Below are positions 2,216 through 61,162 of a stretch of DNA of 62,000 nt, piece by piece. The notes under the pieces are model-generated. The model saw only the letters and a list, made by a program, of their open reading frames with translations. It was not told the origin of the DNA and did no database searches. The DNA is from Malacoraja senta (Eukaryota). How positions within the stretch are numbered: position 1 is the first letter of the stretch; each line of letters begins with the position of its first letter. The translations under genes and the position numbers were made by a program. The stretch is from NCBI GenBank assembly GCA_038087875.1, contig CM075992.1, positions 1 through 62,000 of the forward strand, in the 5' to 3' direction.

Positions 2216-2438
2216 CCCAGTAGCCTTTGCAAATCTCCCCGCCAGGATATTGGTCCCCCTCCTTCCGTAGCAATGAATTCCACAGATTCACCGCCATCCG
2301 ACTAAAGAAATTCCTCTCACCGTGCAGTATGCAGTGCAATGCAGTAAGTGTGTGGACAAAAAGATACTCCTGTCTACATTCTCCAGAGATGCTGCCTGAC
2401 AATCAGAGTTAAACTGGTACTTTGTCCACATATCAGAT

Positions 2439-2660
2439 GGGCCTGCAGTGCAGTGGATCACCAAAGGGTGGGAGTGTTGACCACAAACTGGACGGGTCTG
2501 CAGTGCAGTGGATCACCACATGGTGGGAGTGTTGACCACAAACTGGACGGGTCTGCAGTGCAGTGGATCATCACATGGTGGAAGTGTTGACCACAAACTG
2601 GACGGGTCTGCAGTGCAGTGGATCACCACATGGTGGAAGTGTTGACCACAAATTGGAGCG
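2439..2660 (+). repeat. 55-bp tandem repeat, 4 units (CTCF-motif-like family)
   Basis: Unit GGGTCTGCAGTGCAGTGGATCACCACATGGTGGGAGTGTTGACCACAAACTGGAC starts at 2439, 2494, 2549 and 2604. Confidence 0.95.
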
Positions 2661-3148: not shown

Positions 3149-3321
3149 CTGCCTCACTGCACATTTGGAGCGCTGTCTACAAATTAGATTAAATTGTTCT
3201 CTTTACTGCAAAATGTTGCTCGATTGCTTTGTGACCCGTTTCCTTTCCCCATAAAGCACCCATAGCCCAGATGCCAAAGTTTGTAAAAGCCCTGAAATCA
3301 GGGAAGATTTGGGATGAAAAT

Positions 3322-6465: not shown

Positions 6466-6660
6466 GCAGTTGGTCTGGGCTGTGGATGGAAGTCGTGGTT
6501 CTGGGCTGTTGTGGGCACCAGTGGTCCTGGGCTGTTGTGGGGACCAGTGGTCCTGGGCTGTTGTGGGGACCAGTGGTTCTGGGCTGTTGTGGGGACCAGT
6601 GGTTCTGGGCTGTTGTGGGGACCAGTGGTCCTGGGCTGTGGATGGCAGCGGTGGTCTTGG
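6466..6660 (+). repeat. 26-bp minisatellite (~7 units)
   Basis: GGGGACCAGTGGT(T/C)CTGGGCTGTTGT repeated with period 26. Confidence 0.95.
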
Positions 6661-11885: not shown

Positions 11886-12292
11886 GTTTAGAAGGATGAG
11901 GGGGCTCTTATAGAAACAAATAAAATTATAAAAGGACTGGACAAGCTAGATGCAGGAAAAATGTTCCCAATGTTGGGGGAGTCCAGAACCAGGGGCCACA
12001 GTCTTGGAATAAAGGGGAGGCCATTTAAGACTGAGGTGAGAAAAAACGTTGTCACCCAAAGAATTGTGAATTTGTAGAATTCCCTGCCACAGAGGGCAGT
12101 GGAGGCCAAATCACTGGATGGATTTAAGAGAGAGTTTGATTGAACTCTAGGGGCTAGTGTAATCGTGGGGACATGGGGAGAAGGCAGGCACAGGTTATTG
12201 ATTGGGGATGATCAGCCATGATCACAATGAATGGCGTTGCTGACTCGAAGGGCCGAATGGCCTGCTCCTGCACCTATTTTCTATGTTTCTAT
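11886..12292 (+). mobile_element. CR1 3'-end fragment
   Basis: FRRMRG.LIET.KI..GLDKLDAGKMFP...; CTATGTTTCTAT tail. Confidence 0.9.
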
Positions 12293-12295
12293 ATG

Positions 12296-12420
12296 ACGGG
12301 CCTTCAGGGCAGCGGATCACCACACGGTGGGAGTATTGTCCACAAATTGGATGGGCCTGTTAAATGAATTTGCTGCACATTGGGAGCGCTGTCTACAAAT
12401 TAGAGAAAATTGTTCTCTTT
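12296..12420 (+). repeat. Dispersed copy of the 55-bp CTCF-like family (1 unit plus 1 degenerate unit)
   Basis: GGATCACCACACGGTGGGAGTATTGTCCACAAATTGGA. Shares the downstream flank GGAGCGCTGTCTACAAATTAGA..AAATTGTTCTCTTT with 3155-3204. Confidence 0.8.
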
Positions 12421-13871: not shown

Positions 13872-14036
13872 CTGGTGATGGGAGCCCCCTCGTTCCCTGC
13901 ACCCCCCACCCTGGTGATGGGAACCCCCTCTTTCCCTGTACCCCCTACCCTGGTGATGGGAACCCCCTCATTCCCTGCACCCCCCACCCTGGTGATGGGA
14001 ACCACATTTTCCATGCACCACCCCCCCATCCTGGTG
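13872..14036 (+). repeat. 39-bp minisatellite (~4 units)
   Basis: CTGGTGATGGGAACCCCCTC.TTCCCTGCACCCCCCACC at 13872, 13911, 13950 and 13989. Confidence 0.9.
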
Positions 14037-15977: not shown

Positions 15978-16173
15978 ATAGACTTGAACACACATCAAGA
16001 TACAACACTTGTTTATTAAATCTACATACAGCAAGGATCTGCCGACATCACCTCTCCGAGCTGCTACTCATTCTAAGTAGCGTAAGCAAGCTTGTGATTA
16101 TATGAAGCGCATACTAGGCGGAGTCACTACTAACAAACACTATAATTGGCTAGTATGAAATAGCCAATCTACA
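15978..16173 (-). repeat. Gypsy 3' LTR (outer end eroded)
   Basis: Direct repeat of 21049-21246. Preceded on the minus strand by the purine tract AAGGAAGGA (16174-16182), then TGTAGA. Confidence 0.88.
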
Positions 16174-16267
16174 TCCTTCCTTGTAGAAACAAAAGGAGCA
16201 TCGGTGGCTAAGCAATATAGGTGGAATGTTAATGATACATTTGCAAAATTACATAAAATCGCCATAT

Positions 16268-17584
16268 CTAACGGGTGGCACTGCAAACCCTTCCGGCCCG
16301 CGTGCGGTACGAGTCCGCCTCACCTCCTTTTACTGTAGAAGATATTGGGGAGGGAAATGGGGAAACGACCGGTGGCCCGACAGGCAGGGAGGGTGATGAG
16401 ATAGGCGAGCTAGTTGCCAAACGCCGCATGGAGACTGCAGTGGGAACAGTAGGTGGCAGCGGAAGCGAGACATCAAGATACGTAGTCGCAGGACACTGTT
16501 CCTTCACCGGAAGGATATGTTGACGGTTGCGTCTGTAAATGACTCGGTCCGCTTCGACCAGATAAGAGCGCGGCTCTTTGGCAGGGCTGTAGATGTGTCC
16601 CAGACGTGCATAGCCCTTGTTTATCTGGAGACGGGCCACTTGTCCACGAGTGAGAGGTTTAAGTGGCTTGCTGGACTTATCGAAGAAACGTTTCTGCGCG
16701 TCACGTTTGGATTGTAGTTGCTTCTGAACTGCAGGCGGAAAACGAACTTGTGGCTGCAAAAGCTGCTGGGACACAGGCAGTGGAGCACGGGTTTGGCGAG
16801 ACATCAGTCGTTGGCTGGAGAACCCAGTATGGGATCCTGTGCAATATTCCTTGGAGTTGAGCAAGTCCAGATACACATCTGTTTTGGCAAGGTATGACTG
16901 CTCCATGAGTTGTTTTGCACTCTGGACCGCGCGTTCGACAAGTCCGTTGGACTGGGAATTTGGGGCTGCTGGTAATATGTTGAAAGTCCCATTGTTTTGG
17001 AAAGTTTTTAAAAGCTTGGCTGGTGAACTGTCTGCCGTTGTCGGACTGGATACATGCAGGGGAGCCGTGCACGGAGAGGTGGCCATGCAACTTTCGATTA
17101 CGGCTTCAGAAGTAGTGGTTTGAAGTAAATGGATTTTGAACCAGCCACAGTAAGAGTCTACAAGAACCAGATAATGTTTCCCATGCCACTCGAAGATGTC
17201 GGTGGCTAACGTGGACCACGGGAGAGGTGGGACTGGATGCGGCAGTAAAGGCTGCTTTTGCTGATGTGGTGTCAGGCTTTTGCAGACGGCGCTAACTTCG
17301 TTTTTTTCTCGTATGTATTTGGTCATTCCGGGCTAGTAAAACATGCTTTGGAGGGTTGCCTCCACGCCAGGGTGGCCCCTGTGGTTGTTGTCAAAGTATT
17401 TGTCCCGGAAGGCTGGTGCGACCACTGCCTTGTGGCCCTTGACAATAATTCCGTCCTGTAATACCGGTTCATCGTGAAGCAGGAAGTATGGGCGTATCTC
17501 GAGCGGGGTATTGTGTTGTTTATCCAGCCAGCCACACCGGATGACTGCGGACAGCAATTGTAAGGTCTCATCAGCAGTCGTGTT
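16268..17584 (-). pseudogene. Gypsy integrase region (frameshifted)
   Basis: ORFs 17333-17602, 16268-17326 and 16701-17090 give the zinc-finger HRGHPG, then D..SDNGRQF..ER motifs. Confidence 0.88.
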
Positions 17585-19860
17585 ACATAGAAACATAGAC
17601 AATAGGAGCAGGAGGAGGCGGCCCTTCGAGCCAGCGCCGCCATTTCCTTGTGATCATGGCTGATTGTCTCCAATCAATGACCCGTGCCTGCCTTCTCCCC
17701 ATATCCCTTGATTCCACTAGCCCCTAAAGCTCTATCTAACTCTCTCTTAAATCCATCCAGGGACTTAGCCTCCGCTGCCCTCTATGGCAGGGAATTCCAC
17801 AAATTCACAATTCTCTGGGTGACATTTTTTTTTTCTCACCTCGGTCTTAAATGGCTTCCCCTTTATTCAAAGACTGTGGCCCCTGGTTCTGGACTCGCCA
17901 AACATTGGCAACATTTTTCCTGCATCTAGCTTGTCCAGTCCTTTTATAATTTTATATGTTTTTCCCCTCATCCTTCTAAACTCCAGTGAATACAAGCCTA
18001 GTCTTTTCTAACTTTCCTCCATCCCAGGGATTAATCTCGTGAACCTACGCTGCACTGCCTCAATCACAAGGATGTCCTTCCTCAAATTCGGAGACCAAAA
18101 CTGGACACAGTACTCCAGATGTGGTCTCACCAGAGCCCTATACAACTGCAGAAGAACCTCTTAACTCCTATACTGAAATCCTCTTGTTATGAAGGCCAAC
18201 ATTCCATTAGCTTTCTTCATTGCCTGCTGTATCTGCACGCCATCTTTCAGTGACTGGTGTACAAGGGACGCCCAGATCTCGCTGCACCTCCCCGTGCCCT
18301 AACCTAACCCCAATGAGATAATAATCTGCCCCCTTATTTTTGCCGCCAGTGGATAACCTCACATTTATCTATATTATACTGCATCTGCCATGCATCTGCC
18401 CACTCACTCAACCTTTCCAGGTCACCCTGCAACCTCCTAACATCCTCTTCACAGTTCACACTGCCACCCAGCTTTGTGTTCATCCGCAAACTTGCTAGTG
18501 TTGCTCCTAATTCCCTTTTCCAAATCATTAATATATGGTAAACAGTTGCGGCCCCAACACCGAGCCTTGCGGCACTCCACTCGCCACTGCCTGCCATTCT
18601 GTAAAGGCACCACTCCTACTCTTTGCTTCTTGTCTGCCAACCAATTTTCTATCCATGTCAACACCCTACCCCCAATACCATGTGCTCTAATTTTAGTCAC
18701 CAGTCTCCTGTGCAGGACCTTATCAAAGGCTTTCTGAAAGTCTAGATACACTACATCCACTGGCATCCCTTCATCCATTTTACTTGTCACATCCTCAAAA
18801 TTCCAGAAGATTAGAAACATGAATTCCCTTTCATAAATCGATGTTGACTTGGACTAATCCTTTTACTTCTATCCAAATGCCCCATTATAACCTCTTTAAT
18901 AATTGACTCCAGCATCTTTCCCACCACCGAAGTCAGGCTAACTGGTCTGTAATTCCCTGTTTTCTCTCTCGCTCCTTTCTTGAAAAGTGGGATAACATTA
19001 GCTATCCTCCAATTCACAGGATCCTGAATCTATTGAACATTGGAAAATGATCACCAATGTGTCCACTATTTCTAGAGCCGCCTCCCTGAGGACCCTGGGA
19101 TGCCAGACCCTCAGGCCCAGGGGATTTATCATCCTTCAGTCCATTAGCCTACCCAATACTATTTCTTGCCTAATGAAAATTTATTTCAGTTCCTCTACCC
19201 GCTTAGATCCTCTGTCCTCCAGTACATCAGGGAGATTGTTTGTGTCTTCCTTAGTGAAGACAGATCAGAAGTATCTGTTCAACGCTTCTGCCATTTCCTT
19301 GTTACCCATAATAATTTCACCCGTGTCTGCCTTCAAGGGACCCACATTTGACTTTGCTACTCTTTTCCCTTAACATATCTAAAGAAGCTTTTACTGTCCT
19401 TCTTTAAATTCCTGGCCAGCTTCCCTTCGTACTTCATCTTTTCAGCTCGTATTGTCTGTTTTGTTTCCTTCTGTTGTCCTATGAAAGTTTCCCAATCCTC
19501 TGGCTTGCGGCTACTCTTTGCTGTGTTATACATCTTTTTCTTTTAGTTTTATTCTATCCCTAACTTCTCTTGTCAGCCACAGTTGCCTCCTACTCCCCTT
19601 AGCATCTTTCTTCCTTTTTGGAATCAAATGATTCCAGATTATGCCCAGAGATTCCTGCCATTGCTGTTCCACTGTCATTCCTGCTAGGATCCCTTTCCAG
19701 ACTACCTTGGCCAGCTCCTCTCTCATGCCTTCATAGTCCCCTTTGTTCAACTGCATCACTGACATTTCCGATTTAACCTTCTCCTTCTCAAATTGCGGAT
19801 TAAAACTAATCATATTATGATCACTACCTCCAAGCGGTTCTTTTACCTCGAGTTCTCTTA
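17585..19860 (-). mobile_element. 5'-truncated CR1 inserted in Gypsy pol between RNase H and integrase
   Basis: Starts at EPLGGSDHNMISF; RT fragments follow; (CTATGTTT)-type tail at 17585-17600. Gypsy flanks rejoin as LAE..TTADETLQ. Confidence 0.92.
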
Positions 19861-21030
19861 TCTCTGTTTGTTCTGCTAGGCTGCTTAAACAGTCAGTTGG
19901 CACAAACAAAACCTTCATTACTGAGAATTGATTCTGTACGGAGAGTTGTTGTTTGTTAGTTTTACGCGGGGCTCTGGATAGAGTGTCTGCTATGTGCATG
20001 TCTTTGCCTTTCTTGTAGACAATGTTGAAATCAAATCGCTGCTGTTGCATCATCATACGCTGTAGTTGTGCTGGGGCAGCGTTGATGGGTTTGTTCAAAA
20101 TGGTGACCAGCGGCTGGTGGTCAGTCTCGATAGTAACAGACTTACCAAAGATAAAGTCCTTGAATTTAGTGCAGGTGAAAACAACTGCGAGCAGTTCCTT
20201 TTCGATCTGGGCGTAACGCTGTTCAGTGTCAGTCAGGGTACGGGAGGCGTACAAAACGGGCTTGAAATTGCCACCGGTAGTGGTCTGTAGACACGCTGCG
20301 CCTAGCCCGTACTGGGACGCATCGCAGGTGAGCGCTACCGGTAATTCCAAAGCAAAGTAGGCGAGAGTAGGTGCGCTAGCCAGCTGCAATTTGAGAGTGC
20401 CAAAAGCTGTTTGGTGTTGCAGGTACCAGGACCACGCCGTGTCCTTGTGTGTCAGTTCTCGCAGGGGGCCAGATATGTCACTGAGGTTGGGAATAAATTT
20501 ACCCAGGTAGTTGACCATTCCGAGGAACCTTTGTAAGCTCATGACGTCAGTAGGAACCAACATTTCGTTGATAACTGGTTTTCGACGGGTCTGGTTTGAG
20601 ACCATCACTAGTGAACACATGTCCGACGTAAGTAACCTCTGGAACTCGAAACCTGCACTTCAGGGGATTGAGTTTGAGCTGAATGTCTTTGGCACGGTGA
20701 AGTACTTTCTTCGGACTGGTGTCATGTTCAGCCAGATCGCGTCCGTAGACGAGAATATCATTAACAATGATGGCGCATGGGTACTCTGCAAACAATTGTT
20801 CCATGGTGCGCTGGAAAACTTCGCTGGCAGAGTTGATGCCAAAGTGCATTCTCAGAAATTTATATCGGCCAAAGGGGGTGCCGAACGTAGTGAGATTGGA
20901 CAAGTCTGGGTCCAGTGGAATCCGCCAAAATGAGCTTTTGGCATCCAGAACTGAGAATACTGCTGCGTATCCTATCTGGGCAGCAACTTCTTCTGTCGTA
21001 CGCATTGGGTAATGTGGGCATTTAATGGCA
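19861..21030 (-). pseudogene. Gypsy RT-RNase H (one frameshift)
   Basis: ORFs 20547-21005 and 19526-20620 (Gypsy part). Confidence 0.9.
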
Positions 21031-21031
21031 G

Positions 21032-21048
21032 TCCCACTTCTGACACCA
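21032..21048 (-). other. Primer-binding site complementary to the tRNA-Leu 3' end
   Basis: Minus strand TGGTGTCAGAAGTGGGA directly after the 5' LTR's terminal CA. Matches the vertebrate tRNA-Leu(CAA) end ...UCCCACUUCUGACACCA (from memory). Confidence 0.85.
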
Positions 21049-21246
21049 TGTAATGAGTGGACTCAAACACACATCAAGATACAACACATGTTTATTAAAT
21101 CTACATCAGCAAGGATCTGCAGTCATCACATCTCCAAGCTGCTACTCATTCTAATTAGTGTACGCAGGCTCTTGATTCTATGAAGCACGTAATAGGCGGA
21201 GTCACTACTAACAAACACTTGGCTAGTATGAAGTACCCAGTCTACA
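21049..21246 (-). repeat. Gypsy 5' LTR
   Basis: TG...CA termini; AATAAA on the minus strand; repeat of 15978-16173. Confidence 0.9.
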
Positions 21247-22150: not shown

Positions 22151-22380
22151 GCCACAAATTTATTTAGTTAGGGGTTCGTGAATTTGTAGAATTCATCGCC
22201 ACACACGGTGGTGGAGGCCAAGTCATTAGGTATGTTTAAGGGAAGATTGACGCAGTCTTGATTAGTAAAATCATTAAGAGTTAAGGGGAGAAGGCAGGAG
22301 AATGAGATGGAATGATAGATCAGCCATGATTGAATAGACTCGATGGGCCAAAGTTAGTTACAGCTGTAAATACAGACTAT

Positions 22381-22637
22381 CGCAATTTGTGGTCAACACT
22401 CCCACCCAGTGGTCACTGCTGTAATTGCAGGCCGTCTCAAATTTTGGCCAACACTCCCACCCAGTGGTCACTGCTGTAATTGCAGGCCGTCGCAATTTGT
22501 GGCCAACACTCCCACCCAGTGGTTACTGCTGTAATTACAGGCCATCAGAATTTGTTGCCGACACTCCCACCCAGTGGTCACCCACTCTAACTACAGGCCG
22601 TTGTAATTTGTGCCCGACACTGCCACCTAGTGCTATG
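22381..22637 (-). repeat. 55-bp tandem repeat, ~4.5 units, same family as 2439-2660 but inverted
   Basis: Units at 22381, 22436, 22491, 22546 and 22601. Minus-strand unit ACGGCCTGCAATTACAGCAGTGACCACTGGGTGGGAGTGTTGGCCACAAATTGCG. Confidence 0.93.
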
Positions 22638-22766
22638 CGCCCTAAGTACCAGGCAGTGGTCGCCACTCCTCGCAATTCCCTGGTCCCACTCGTCTCGTGT
22701 GTCAGTGCATCTCCATCCCCCCCAATAGTTCACGTTCAAGAGTTCAAGAGACATTTATTAGCACAT

Positions 22767-22997
22767 TGTGGCGGGAACTGGCAGGAGTCCAGCCAAAAAC
22801 TAGTCGGACACAAGTTGTGTGCTCTAGACGTTATTCTTCTGCATACAGCTCCCCACTCCTCAGCTGACATGGGCGTTGCCCGGCCTTAAATAACAACTCG
22901 GATACCGATCTCGTGACTTGCGCCTCCCCCACCAAGACGCCGCCCTCTGGAGCCAATGGTTCGTTGTGACCTTGGGTTGCTATCAGGTGCCGCCACA
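22767..22997. mobile_element. Solo LTR (231 bp), Gypsy-type
   Basis: TGTGGCGG...CCGCCACA termini; 4-bp TSD ACAT (22763-22766, 22998-23001). Sits inside a Rex-like tail. Confidence 0.85.
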
Positions 22998-30480: not shown

Positions 30481-31655
30481 GGAAATCCGACCACTCACTG
30501 ATTGCATCTAACAAAAGCAAACTCACTGAATGACCACTCTGACGAAACGCCACCTAACCGAAAGACTGTGTCGCCTACAAGCCAACAAACCGAATGCCGC
30601 TCAACAGAAAAGTCAAATAATGGACATGACGTTGCCGGGGGGCGGGACTTGTCAGCAATTGGTCCAGACCCCCGCATCCATCACATCACTGGCCGGTGGA
30701 GAAGGGAGGGTGGGGGTCATTTTCCCACACAAGCCATAGGTGACTGAGCACTCTGAACCCGAGCACCACGTTGTAAGCGGCCGAAGGTGTGCATCCCTCG
30801 GGACAGCCCCCACTCTCCCATGGCCGCCCTCCGCCTCATCTCCCCCACTGTCACGGGCTGTGGGTCGGGTGGAGCAGAGGTGTGGGACAGGCTGGTCCCT
30901 CCTCCCACCCAGGGTCACTGACCACGATGCCAAGGGGGGGGGGGGTGAGTGGGAGGAGATAAAATTGTTCGTTGTTATGCACACTTGTCATCGGCCCGCC
31001 AGGGAATGTGTGTGTGTCCCCATGTTTTAAAAGCGATTACTATGTCCCAAGCCATCTTTCCCCGTGGCCGGGGTGGGGGTGAATCACTCGGTGTGGGTGT
31101 CACGGTCCGGGGGTCGGAGGGGGGGGGGAATCACCCTGGTGTGAGGGTTGAGGTCCGATGGCGGTGCATCGCGGTCAGTGACTCTGGATGGGCGGAGGGA
31201 CCAGCCTGTCCCACACCTCCACTCCACCCGACCCACAGCCCGTCACAGTGCGGCCACTGGGGGAGACGAGGCGGAGGGTGGCCGTGGGAGAGTGGGGGCT
31301 GCCCCGAGGGATGCACACCTTCGGCCGCTTACAACTTGGTGCTCGGGTTCAGAGTGCTCAATCACCTATGGCTTGTGTGGGAAAATGACCCCCACCATCC
31401 GGTCTCCACCAGCCAGTGATGTGATGGATGCAGGGGTCTGGACCAATCGCTGACAAGGCCCGCCCCCCGGCAACGTCATGTCCATTATTTGACTTTTTTG
31501 TTGAGCGGCATTTGGTTCGTTGGCTTGTAGGCAACGCAGCCTTTCGGTTAGTTGGCTTTTAGGCGTCCAGCCCTGTCGGTTAGTTTGCTTTTAGGCGTCC
31601 CACCCTTTCGGTTAGTTGGCATTTGGGCTTCGTTTCCATTCGGTTATTTGGCTTC
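30481..31655. mobile_element. Foldback/MITE-like element with ~380-bp inverted arms
   Basis: 30549-30930 is the reverse complement of 31166-31556 (one 10-bp indel). ~32-bp subterminal repeats TCGGTTAGTT(G/T)GC. No TSD found. Confidence 0.8.
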
Positions 31656-34390: not shown

Positions 34391-36559
34391 AAATCTCTTG
34401 GATTATGCCATAACTCAGCTCATGATTATCAAATGATTTGCCTGTGAACAGGGAAAATTAGGGAGGGCAATAAATGCCAATGATATGCACACCCCAAAAT
34501 ATCTTCCTCATATCACCCTTCCATTCATATCACTGAGTGAAAATCCTGAAACACGCTTCCGAACACTCGTCACCACAAGGACTGCGACAATCTGTAGCAG
34601 CACTGCAGTAATTCAAGGAGACTGGAAAGCTTGGAAATCATTGCCCGTAGACACAGCTCAGCTGGCTCCTCATTTGGTATTCCTTGGTGCAATGTAATTT
34701 AAGCTTCTGAATCTTTGCTATGCACTTCACGTTGGATCCAGCATGAAAATACTTACAGAATTAAACAGGTAGTGCAACCTTTGCAGGGGTAAGTCAAGCA
34801 TGGAAAATGAGCACTCCCTCAGCGCTCAGGGAAAGCAGCAATTTTTTGATATGGATATTTTGCTCCATCTCATGCTCTGGTACAATTGGCTTGGAGGGGA
34901 CTTGTCCCCTCAGATACTGAGGGGACAAGTCAGGGCCTTTTTAGTTCCACTTTATGAGTGTTTCACACAGTCGTAATGTAATTAACCTACCATACATATG
35001 TATTTGGTGTGTGGGAGCAAACTGGAGCACCTGGAGAAAACCCATGCAGGGAGAGCTTCTGATTTCACCTAAGATCAGGATTGAACCTAGTCTCTGGATC
35101 TATGAAGGGCAGAAACTCTAACATCCACAACATTGTGGCACCCCACTAAGGATAAGGTGTTTGACCTTCTAAACCCGCCCTATCCTTATATGTCTGAAAG
35201 TTGTAATTTTTTCCATTCTATAGCATCCTCTGGCTGCTTGTTCCAGATACGGACTGCCCACGGAGTGAACAAATATTCCTTGATATCCTCTTAAATCTCT
35301 CTCCTCTCATCAAAGAGTGTGTGCCCTCTAGTTGTCGAATCCTCTACTCTGGGGGGGGGGGGGGGTGGAAACTGTGAGTGTTCACTTGATCCATGTGAAC
35401 TCTTGATCTTGTACACCTCAATAAGGTCATCCCTCAGCCTCCTAGGCTCCAAAGAAAAAAGTCCCACCTATCCAACCTCTTCCTATAACATAAGCCCACA
35501 AGCTCAGGTAATACCCTGGTGAATCTTAATGATCAGAACCGCACACAGTATTCCGAGTGTGGTCTCACCAGTAACATACAGCTGCAACATTCAACAGGGT
35601 ATTGAATTTGGAAGATCAGCCTTGATTATATTGAATGATGGAGCATGATCCAAGATCCAAGAGACTTTTTCCTCCTATTTCTATGTTCATATTTTCGATC
35701 CAAGTTATTATTATGCTGAAATTGACCCTAATTCTCATTGGTCACAATAAAATATAATCTACTGTGATGAGCAACAGAACAGGAGAATGCATAAAGGAGA
35801 ATGCAGTAGAATCCATGTAGTCTTGGACAAAATTGGCTGCAGCTTCCTGCATTACAGCCACTCAAGGTACAAGGTGCGTGGGGATAGAGAGAGGCACGGC
35901 TGAGAAGCTGCTTCATGAACTGGACCTGCCAAGAAGGGTGGGGGAAGGAGCGAAATAAATACATGGTGATGTTTCAATTTCCAACAACATTTGCATTGCG
36001 CCTACTTCCTCCCAACCGGTAGTGTCATTCCAGAAGCTCAGTATCCCTGCATTCTGCATGGACCAAGACCATGCAGTCTTGTTATGCATGCAAGACCCTG
36101 TCCCACTGAGTTACTCCAGCATTTTGTATCTATCTTGGACCAAGACCACGTCTGACCCAACGTTGCCACTGCAAGGTCTTCTCTGGGGTCGGGAGTAATT
36201 CACTTGAGCGGCTTGTAATTTAGCTGTTTTCTATTAGCCAGCTGTTTGTTTCTCAGCCACAGCTCCTTATCTCCAGTTCTGCAGGCCAGTGTTGGCTGAG
36301 CAAGCCAGGATTAACTGTCAGCACTGTGATACTATCTGTAAATTGCTTTTCTGTGCAATGCCCTAATGTAATGGGACTGTTTTCTTGTGCTATTAATTAT
36401 GCATCAATACAAAATGCCTGTCTTTTCCACAATGCTTTCAGAAAATTAAAATTCTTTAAGACATAAAACTGTTTACTCTCATTTCTAAATAAATATCCTT
36501 TTCCTCCCCATCATGGATTTTTAAAAATCATTAACATTTTAGCTCCCTGTTTGTCTTGT

Positions 36560-43279: not shown

Positions 43280-44408
43280 TGAAGGTAGACAAAAGTGGTG
43301 GAGAAATCAACGGGTGCAGCAGCATCTATGGAGCTAAGGAAATAGGGAACGTTTCGGGCCGAAACTCTTCTTCAGACAGATGTAGGGTGGGGGGGGGAGG
43401 GGGGTGCGGGGAGAAGAAATGAAAAAGGAAGAGGAGGAGCCCGAGGGCTGAGGGAGAGCTGAGAAGGGGAGGAGACAGCAAGGGCTACTGGAAATTGGAG
43501 AATTCAATGTTTATGCCGCTAGGGTGCAGACTGCCCAAGCGGAATATGAGGTGCTGCTCCTCCAATTTCCGGTGGTCCTCACTCTGGCCATGGAGGAGGC
43601 CCAGGACAGAAAGGTCAGATTTGGAATGGGAGGGGGAGTTGAAGTGCTGAGCCACCGGGAGATCAGGTTGGTTAATGCGGACCGAGCGGAGGTGTTCGGC
43701 GAAACGATCGCCAAGCCTAAGCTTGGTCTCACCGATGTAGGTCAGCTGACATCTAGAGCAGCGGATGCAATAGATGAGGTTGGAGGAGGTGCAGGTGAAC
43801 CTCTGTCGCACCTGGAACGACTGCTTGGGTCCTTGAATGGAGTCGAGGGGGGAGGTAAAACGACAAGTGTAGCATCTCTTGCGGTTGCAAGGGAAAGTGT
43901 CCGGGGAGGGGATGGAAGGGATGGAAGGGAAGAATTGACCAGGGAGTTTCGGAGGGAGCGGTCTTTGCGGAAAGCAGACAGGGGGGGAGATGGGATGATG
44001 TGGCGAGTGGTGGGGTCACGTTGGATGTGGCGAAAATGACGGAGGACTATTTGTTGTATGTGACGGCTAGTGGGGTGAAAGGTGAGGACTAGGGGGACTC
44101 TGCCCTTGTTACGAGTGGGGGGATGGGGAGAGAGAGCAGTGTTGCGGGGTATTGAAGAGACCCTGGTGCGAGCCTCATCTATAGTGGAGGAGGGGAACCC
44201 CCGTTCCCTGAAGAATGAGGACATTTCCGATGCCCTGGTGTGGAACACCTCATCCTGGGAGCAGATGCGGCGTAGACCGAGGAATTGGGAGTAGGGGATG
44301 GAGTCCTTACAGGAAGCAGGGTGGGAGGAAGAGTAGTCTAGATAGCCATGGGAGTCAGTGGGTTTATAGTGAATGTCAGTCAGAAGTCTATCACCTGCGA
44401 TGGAGTAA
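43280..44408 (-). mobile_element. Penelope-like element: RT C-terminus, GIY-YIG endonuclease and hammerhead terminus
   Basis: TDIHYKPTDSHGYLDYSSSHP..KDSIPYSQFLGLRRICS; FTCTSSNLIYCIRCSRCQLTYIGET..RFAEH. Minus-strand CTGAAGAAGAGTTTCGGCCCGAAACGTT at 43348-43376. Confidence 0.92.
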
Positions 44409-45979
44409 GTTGATATGGGTGAACAAAGGTCAGAGATGAATTGAAGACAAAAGGCTGTGAGTTGAGATGGAGAGTGAAATGGACACCCAGAGGAAGGGAT
44501 GTCAGTGGACGGAGACATGGGGGAAGAGGTACAGCGGCAGGATGGTGGGAGAAATTGGTGCACATTCAGGTCTAGCATAGGAAAGAGAGGTGGGTGTGGG
44601 GGGAGAGGGGAGTGGGAATGTTTGGCTTGTTACCCAAAATTGGAGAATTCAATATTCAGGCTATTCTGTTGTAAGTTACCTAAGCCGAATATGAGGTGCT
44701 CTTCCTCCAGTTTGCATGTGGCCTCACTCTGGCAATGAAGGAGGCCTCAGACAGAAAGGTCAGTATTGGAATGGGAAGGACAGTTAAAATGGTTAGCAAC
44801 CAGGAGATCCAGCAGGCCTTGGCGGACCAAACGCAAGTGTCCGGCTAAACGGTCGCTGAGTCTACATTTAGTCTCGCCAATGTGAAGGAGGCAACAATGG
44901 GAGCACTGAATAGATGAGGTCCAGCTTTTTGTGTCTATCTTAGGTTAGAGGAGGTGCATGTAAACCTTTTTCTCACCTGGAAGGACTGCTGGGGTCTCTG
45001 GATGGATATGAGACTATTTGTTGTATGTGACGGCTAGTGGGGTGAAAGGTGAGGACTAGGGGGACTCTGCCCTTGTTACGAGTGGGGGGATGGGGAGAGA
45101 GAGCAGTGTTGCGGGGTATTGAAGAGACCCTGGTGCGAGCCTCATCTATAGTGGAGGAGGGGAACCCCCGTTCCCTGAAGAATGAGGACATTTCCGATGC
45201 CCTGGTGTGGAACACCTCATCCTGGGAGCAGATGCGGCGTAGACCGAGGAATTGGGAGTAGGGGATGGAGTCCTTACAGGAAGCAGGGTGGGAGGAAGAG
45301 TAGTCTAGATAGCCATGGGAGTCAGTGGGTTTATAGTGGATGTCAGTCAGAAGTCTATCACCTGCGATGGAGTAAGTTGATATGGGTGAACAAAGGTCAG
45401 AGATGAATTGAAGACAAAAGGCTGTGAGTTGAGATGGAGAGTGAAATGGACACCCAGAGGAAGGGATGTCAGTGGAAGGAGACATGGGGGAAGAGGTACA
45501 GCGGCAGGATGGTGGGAGAAATTGGTGCACATTCAGGTCTAGCATAGGAAAGAGAGGGGGGGTGTGGGGGGAGAGGGGAGTGGGAATGTTTGGCTTGTTA
45601 CCCAAAATTGGAGAATTCAATATTCAGGCTATTCTGTTGTAAGTTACCTAAGCCGAATATGAGGTGCTCTTCCTCCAGTTTGCATGTGGCCTCACTCTGG
45701 CAATGAAGGAGGCCTCAGACAGAAAGGTCAGTATTGGAATGGGAAGGACAGTTAAAATGGTTAGCAACCAGGAGATCCAGCAGGCCTTGGCGGACCAAAC
45801 ACAAGTGTCCGGCTAAACGGTCGCTGAGTCTACATTTAGTCTCGCCAATGTGAAGGAGGCAACAATGGGAGCACTGAATAGATGAGGTCCAGCTTTTTGT
45901 GTCTATCTTAGGTTAGAGGAGGTGCATGTAAACCTTTTTCTCACCTGGAAGGACTGCTGGGGTCTCTGGATGGATATGA
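44045..45979. repeat. 967-bp near-perfect tandem duplication (44045-45011 / 45012-45979)
   Basis: Only a handful of differences seen. Each unit is a young PLE RT piece plus an older PLE GIY-YIG remnant. Confidence 0.95.
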
Positions 45980-60704: not shown

Positions 60705-61162
60705 AATGAAAATGAAATGAGTTGTTTGGCCTGCCCTGTGCTTGAAACTGCAATGGCAATGGAAGTGAATGAAAATGTAATCAGCTGTTTGCCCTGCCCT
60801 GTGCTTGAAACCACAATGGCAATGGAAGTGAAATGAAAATGCAATCAGCTGTTTGGCCTGCCCTGTGCTTGAAACTGCAATGGCAATGGAAGTGAAATGA
60901 AAATACAATCTGCTGTTTGGCCTGCCCTGTGCTTGAATCTGCAATGGCAATGGAAGTGAAATGAAAATGCAATCAGCTCTTTGGCCTGCCCTGTGCTTGA
61001 AACTGCAATGGCAATGGAAGTAAAATGAAAATACAATCAGCTGTTTGGCCTGCCCTGTACTTGAAACTGCAATGGAAATGGAAGTAAAATGAAAATGCAA
61101 TGAGCTGTTCGGCCTGCCCTGTGCTTGAATCTGCAATGGCAATGGAAGTGAAATGAAAATGA
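60705..61162 (+). repeat. 64-bp tandem repeat (~7 units; resumes at 61836-61910)
   Basis: AAATGAAAATGCAATCAGCTGTTTGGCCTGCCCTGTGCTTGAAACTGCAATGGCAATGGAAGTG, period 64 (60831, 60895, ...). Confidence 0.95.

Follow-up and report, generated by a model that had tools for sequence, protein, structure and literature searches.

The tandem array A2 is one locus of a multi-locus minisatellite family with units of 55 or 56 bp, rather than one of a pair of arrays in the window, as the whole stretch of 62,000 nucleotides analysed here is called. The family unit carries an upstream motif followed by a CTCF-like core of medium strength, and A2 may well be a cluster of four or five co-oriented candidate CTCF sites, a reading on which we are evenly divided. 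The array is real, belongs to a family more widely spread than was first noted and is plausibly bound by CTCF.

Tandem Repeats Finder reports a period of 55 with 4.9 copies and 83% matches at 22363-22632. The first-pass annotation placed the array at 22381-22637; the array stands, but its five units lie at 22386-22661 (Table 1), and the two right-hand ones have 56 bases, with 6 bases between the upstream motif and the core. A2 had been described as a second, diverged and inverted 55-bp array, and indeed it aligns in inverted orientation with 2427-2655 (71% identity over 241 columns, E 2e-20). A segment that had been called a homologous flank is homologous, but it belongs inside the repeat unit and is hence no flank. 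The homology of A1 and A2 also holds, but one more locus, at 12292, had been overlooked in counting two arrays. A profile of the unit, built from the same ten units that it finds, recovers ten units at three loci in the window with 38-58 bits (48.6 bits for the single A3 unit at 12292-12346) and nothing else above 7.4 bits. The degenerate ends of A1 (3157-3204) and A3 (12373-12420) are identical at 45 of 48 bases (94%). The units of A1 and A3 are oriented to the right and those of A2 to the left; the loci thus face each other over 10-20 kb. On its left, the truncated sixth unit of A2 adjoins a LINE-like repeat, which we take to be the 3' end of a CR1-like LINE.

Table 1. Positions of the family loci, the candidate CTCF sites of A2 and the adjacent features in the window.
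Feature	Position	Strand	Basis or remark
Array A1, four units	2433..2657	+	Unit profile; 7/7 upstream motif with 5-base spacing
Degenerate end unit of A1	3157..3204	+	Shifted away by a repeat insertion
Locus A3, one A1-type unit and shared degenerate end	12292..12420 (unit 12292-12346)	+	
Interspersed repeat abutting A2	22157..22352	+	
Truncated sixth A2 unit	about 22357..22385	-	Upstream-like word and linker, core broken off
Array A2, five 55/56-bp units	22386..22661	-	Tandem repeat call and unit profile
Core and downstream block	22384..22413	-	High-depth 30-base piece
A2 core, 11.9 bits	22397..22415	-	Upstream CTGCAAT at 22424-22430, spacing 5
A2 core, 11.9 bits	22452..22470	-	Upstream CTGCAAT at 22479-22485, spacing 5
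A2 core, 10.3 bits	22507..22525	-	Upstream 6/7 at 22534-22540, spacing 5
A2 core, 11.9 bits	22562..22580	-	Upstream 6/7 at 22590-22596, spacing 6
A2 terminal core, 14.3 bits	22618..22636	-	Upstream decayed, 4/7 at 22646-22652
Single-copy flank anchoring A2 orthologs	22662..22735	.	
Solo LTR-like element	22767..22997	.	8-bp inverted ends, 4-bp target duplication ACAT

The bit scores of the CTCF-like cores rest on a mammalian matrix which we take to be similar to JASPAR MA0139.1. Each tandem unit of A2 has a CTCF-like core in the same orientation, and the five cores score 10.3-14.3 bits (p about 4e-6 to 4e-5). With the same mammalian matrix the A1 cores reach 4.8, 7.7, 6.9 and 11.6 bits, and the A3 core reaches 7.7 bits with an upstream motif of 5/7. 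In four of the five A2 units, an upstream motif with 6-7 of 7 letters precedes a core of 10-12 bits by 5 or 6 bases. The word CTGCART is found 15 bases ahead of the core in all four A1 units (7/7) and in three A2 units (7, 7 and 6 of 7); in the unit of 56 bases at 22562 the distance is 16 bases and the match 6/7. The units generally carry two high-information core mismatches: the consensus A at position 9 is missing in nine units out of ten, as is the consensus C at position 15. The arrangement CTGCAATTAC-5 nt-TGACCACTGGGTGGGAGTG, which had been given for the array, is exact in two A2 units, but the remaining three deviate, one of them reading CTGTAATTAC and TAACC instead. The terminal core GCACTAGGTGGCAGTG was found exactly as described, at 22618-22633 on the minus strand.

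A core of at least 11.9 bits occurs in 187 of 20,000 dinucleotide shuffles of one unit, while a core preceded, 5 or 6 bases away, by a complete upstream motif (7/7) occurs in none. Each of three units gave the same null result for a 7/7 match (0/20,000), and with at least 6/7 letters the counts are 1, 1 and 9 of 20,000; these shuffles concern single units rather than a genome-wide search, and the preselection of the case makes them somewhat weaker. Of the 141 window cores that reach 3 bits, eight are accompanied by an upstream match of 6/7 or better, and each of these eight lies in a family unit. Only one of the eight other tandem arrays in the window contains a core that reaches 8 bits, and it contains just one. 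All five A2 cores exceed 8, the cut-off applied to CTCF motifs of skate in PMC10115646, although the scaling used here may differ.

A two-part CTCF-like architecture of the unit is supported by these matches, since its geometry equals that of a tested site and both of its spacings are recognised by CTCF. The tested site is the IL3 insulator, which consists of an upstream 10-mer, 5 bases and the core, and the two recognised spacings between upstream site and core are 5 and 6 bases (available text of PMC12885311 and PMC10287918, respectively). The latter source gives TGCAATACCC or TGCAATCCC as the best upstream site in vitro. In the portion available, it also states that the upstream site matters most on cores of middle strength in vitro, and that a defective core is not rescued by a strong upstream site; the cores tested there deviate at positions other than 9 and 15, which are the ones concerned here.

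Comparison of the two subfamilies without gaps, a pattern underlain by about two independent comparisons, gives identities between A1 and A2 of 0.74 for the seven upstream bases, 0.78 for the core, 0.24 for the linker and 0.82 for the eleven bases downstream of the core. The three bases following the upstream word (0.07) and the ten preceding it (0.36) are poorly conserved. The linker had been said to diverge, which agrees with these values (24% in the linker, 74% in the upstream motif, 78% in the core), and substitutions are not spread evenly over the unit. Part of the linker difference is due, in a gapped alignment, to one insertion and one deletion which cancel each other, and the spacing of 5 is kept in both subfamilies despite these offsetting one-base indels. 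The annotation proposed to ask whether conservation concentrates on the bases contacted by CTCF. In favor, the thirteen motif columns are more conserved than the remainder (0.80 vs 0.56, permutation p 0.024); against, a circular shift gives p 0.073 and the downstream eleven bases are 82% identical. These eleven bases fall outside the known contacts of fingers 3-11, and they make up part of the longest identical run between A1 and A2 (21 bases, P 0.019). Within A2 alone, the contrast between motif columns and the rest has p 0.15-0.18, and identity between A1 and A2 within the core does not track the information content of its positions (rho 0.13, p 0.61). The pattern is thus uneven but, as judged from these columns, it is no clean CTCF footprint. 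Common descent from one family consensus explains much of what had been read as retention of the motif.

The orthologous sequence gives a second view of the array. A search of sequencing runs covered 18 runs from five organisms, of which 17 contain part of the A2 stretch; contigs of runs X2, X3, X4 and X11 were compared at 80% likeness, X5-X10 and X12-X17 (organism E included) being left out, and the counts of differences and pieces are those among the ones listed. Run X2 comes from organism A, whose runs X1 and X2 are possibly the source sample, and its contig over 22462-22780 has zero differences among those listed. In X3, X4 and X11 (organisms B, C and D), one contig each leads from the array into the adjoining single-copy sequence and differs at 11-13 listed positions, and we identify these contigs as A2 orthologs in three related organisms. 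The depth over 22602-22713 is flat and comes from a single contig in all four runs. Coverage is missing over the high-copy repeat at 22730-22777 in X4 and over 22330-22393 in X2, of which 88% was read and in which the high-depth piece is absent too; these gaps are given no weight as evidence.

The changes at 22613, 22622, 22633 and 22649 are common to X3, X4 and X11. The letters of the relatives match the family consensus, and the state of the window at these positions is therefore derived. Three of the changes of the window's lineage fall on motif columns of the terminal unit. The terminal core of the three relatives has the consensus C at position 4 and a G at position 15 (12.5-12.8 bits), whereas the window has the reverse (14.3 bits). 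The near-consensus terminal core that had been emphasized is thus real in the window, but it is specific to one lineage and absent in the three relatives; one favorable base was here exchanged for another. As for the unit at 22562, each of the three relatives differs from the window at core positions 1-2 and in the linker (-3 to +2).

At the orthologous loci no excess retention is seen: with species too close for the comparison to have power, the array is no better conserved than the flank among the differences listed (7/113 in the array vs 3-4/118 in the flank for X3, Fisher p 0.37, and vs 1-5/118 for X11, likewise not significant). No sign of purifying selection on A2 is seen at the short distance of X3 and X11. 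The proposal that binding has been selected, as opposed to neutral drift, keeps the observation that the differences lie mostly in the linker, but the downstream block, the off-consensus positions and the orthologs speak against it, and selection on binding at the A2 locus is at present weakly backed. Separately, the interval 22613-22649 contains four lineage-specific C/G transversions in 37 bases, compared to about one shared change in the 74-base flank. This group may be a local conversion or a mutation cluster.

The family extends beyond the window. Four longer contigs of X2 (611, 444, 160 and 338 bases, depth 15-40) fit the units in part and then pass into other sequence, and X3, X4 and X11 have contigs of the same sort; these are further family loci with other flanks. 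In X3, X4 and X11, the 30-base piece at 22384-22413 reaches a depth 147, 277 and 717 times that of the ortholog, respectively; since summed depth is not copy number and the records behind this piece are unseen, hundreds of family copies can only be roughly estimated from it. Unit identity of the paralogs is at least 80%, and no paralog covers 22602-22713 at 80% likeness in the four runs compared, so that what the loci have in common at this threshold is the unit and not the flank. Two loose ends of paralogs, from X2 and X4, are alike, and the window itself lacks the word found in the paralog flank (one weak match compared to 1.84 expected). No terminal repeats, target duplication or coding region are seen for the family arrays, but their ends are disturbed by later insertions and an old element could look the same. 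The arrays are not LTRs of the nearby Gypsy element, as comparison with the LTRs at 15981-16173 and 21060-21246 rules this out. An immunoglobulin or protocadherin cluster with a 10-kb unit was rejected, as the homology of A1 and A3 ends after 48 bases. The unit pattern has no match in viral contigs, and its one match in metagenomes (L001) covers 21 bases outside any unit context, which we take as chance. The family is undescribed in the literature searched, which included few subscription papers, and it may be an unnamed Dfam or Repbase entry.

Run X4 may carry a chromatin signal. Its contigs total 73 million letters, compared to 1,765-2,603 million read for the other three runs, yet the A2 ortholog and the single-copy sequence beside it reach depth 30.5 in this run, and further pieces of the family 8-201. 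The four small runs of organism C, among which only X4 was aligned, hold 0.14-0.19 of the words, compared to 0.14 in the two large runs of the same organism. The paralog pieces in X4 span a PstI site, which speaks against a PstI digest library. The depth hints at a library enriched for open or bound DNA, and it would fit an RNA or another reduced library as well.

If A2 is a cluster of CTCF sites, the family probably spread first, and binding would have followed because the consensus already fitted CTCF. Fingers 9-11 would grip the upstream word and offset the two off-consensus bases of the core, and tandem copying would turn one mediocre site into a cluster. The left-facing A2 would slow cohesin loops coming from the left and would face the right-facing loci at 2.4 and 12.3 kb, the roles of which are putative too. 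The array has no known target, since the window yielded no host gene. Of 358 stop-to-stop frames (at least 45 codons, self-unique), 357 gave Pfam hits solely of retroelement kinds (RT, endonuclease, RNase H, integrase, GIY-YIG, and ALKBH8_N beside RT) and one sub-threshold DUF816 hit, and the 358th is a LINE ORF2, although short exons escape such a search.

A neutral repeat family, whose likeness to CTCF sites is due to descent and which spread by slippage, duplication or as cargo of mobile elements, would be unbound or bound to no consequence. The many loci and their high depth in the relatives agree with this idea, as do the 48-base end which A1 and A3 share at 94%, as copies of an element would, the level of conservation of the array, which does not exceed that of the flank, the failure of positions 9 and 15 to improve in most units, and the abundance of retroelements in the region. 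Still, the two-part match is improbable in one ancestral unit (0/20,000 shuffles), the differences are concentrated in the linker, paralogs keep at least 80% unit identity yet none covers the A2 flank, and several loci are found at depth in X4. We consider a neutral family somewhat unlikely, but it is the strongest competitor of the CTCF cluster.

The conserved block GGTGGGAGTGTTGACCACAAA raises the possibility that another protein, alone or beside CTCF, binds the unit, either a lineage-specific zinc-finger protein or RUNX, whose motif we take the ACCACA word of this block to be. The block is the longest identical run between the subfamilies, keeps the G at position 15 that disfavors CTCF and coincides with the high-depth piece in the relatives; conservation beyond the CTCF core is also described for DXZ4 and ICCE. 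Such a protein would, however, leave the upstream motif at exactly 5 or 6 bases unexplained. A G directly after the core marks finger-1-dependent CTCF sites in the available section of PMC9878928, so that the block could partly be a CTCF contact, although the register of this G relative to GGTGGGAGTGTTGACCACAAA could not be fixed. On balance a second binder seems improbable. A function of the array as an RNA or a single-stranded fold is very improbable: run X4 could be an RNA library, as DNA is only a guess at its kind, but the window has no Rfam match and the array folds no better than its shuffles (z -1.0). No RNA run is listed among those that contain the stretch, which counts neither for nor against this idea.

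Repeat-driven spread of CTCF sites is documented in mammals, and the rodent B2 SINE carries such sites. The sites in LTR13, LTR41 and L1 are similar to the present ones in that one fixed CTCF word is carried to many loci, and those of LTR13 and L1 depend on finger 10 (PMC9878928, part available); their carriers are retroelements, while the present carrier is a minisatellite with no transposon hallmarks around A2. DXZ4 and ICCE (PMC3491370, PMC6125249, both in part) are likewise related tandem repeats at separate loci with a common CTCF motif. They have kilobase units, are X-linked and have proven binding, with conservation confined to the motif over mammals, whereas the present family has 55-bp units, few copies per locus and many loci, its conservation spills past the motif and its sites are predicted. 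The human subtelomeric 61-bp repeat of TERRA promoters (10.1101/2025.05.15.654290) is a CTCF minisatellite of similar size at many loci, and is likened here by description only; in the part of that report available, it belongs to a 61-29-37 promoter that adjoins telomeric repeats, and the tandem repeat call shows no companion repeats of this kind next to A2. In architecture the family is like the IL3 insulator, which shares the upstream 10-mer, the 5-base linker and a non-C at position 15. It differs from the present family by a consensus A at position 9, by A rather than G at position 15, and as a tested site at a single locus. According to the same partial source (PMC12885311), tandem sites with an upstream motif insulate, and tandem copies strengthen insulation at IL3-type sites.

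Domains of cartilaginous fishes are bounded by oriented CTCF motifs, and skate domain boundaries bear them (PMC10115646, as far as available), while no CTCF-site repeat family of these fishes was found in the literature searched. The minisatellite may have seeded hundreds of full-length CTCF clusters (fingers 3-11) across the genomes of this fish lineage, with the spacing kept through offsetting indels in two subfamilies. It would then parallel, in cartilaginous fishes, the expansions of CTCF sites by SINEs in mammals and shape domain boundaries particular to the lineage; we regard this extension as rather doubtful. If the sites are bound, they provide a natural series (the same word, one to five copies, spacing 5 or 6, a weak core with a strong upstream motif) that tests how copy number and fingers 9-11 make a boundary of a mediocre site. 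If they are unbound, the family is an ordinary old minisatellite and a caution against inferring selection from one terminal "consensus" copy.

The window is chordate DNA rich in retroelements: it contains frames of LINE ORF2 and a Gypsy element, besides numerous interspersed repeats. The clusters to which the LINE protein belongs are mostly of Chordata, and the repeats are presumably of the type found in skate-like cartilaginous fishes. The solo LTR-like element to the right of A2 contains a 15.8-bit CTCF-like core (22938-22956, minus strand) in the orientation of A2, as well as CCAAT- and TATA-like words on the minus strand, and the ortholog contigs of X3 and X11 extend into its first bases. 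A Gypsy-type element at 15981-21246 (minus strand, LTRs 86.5% identical) has broken RT/RNase H and integrase frames with inserted LINE pieces, and bears a core of 16.2 bits at 16443. Lone strong cores with no upstream motif are located at 35319, 47536 and 54482 (13.9-16.3 bits). The non-family cores of at least 13.5 bits number five, compared to a shuffle mean of 1.7 and maximum of 5, which is borderline, and at 8 or 11.5 bits the non-family cores of the window show no excess over shuffles. Other minisatellites lie at 60705-61161 (64 bp), 6471-6655 (26 bp) and 13872-14003 (39 bp); the 26-bp one has one core of 9.9 bits and the other two have none. An inverted pair of 306 bases, 93% complementary and 404 bases apart, occupies 30545-31560. 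Finally, a near-identical 967-bp duplication at 43444-45856 lies within a Penelope-like (GIY-YIG) element and is possibly an assembly or pseudo-LTR feature.
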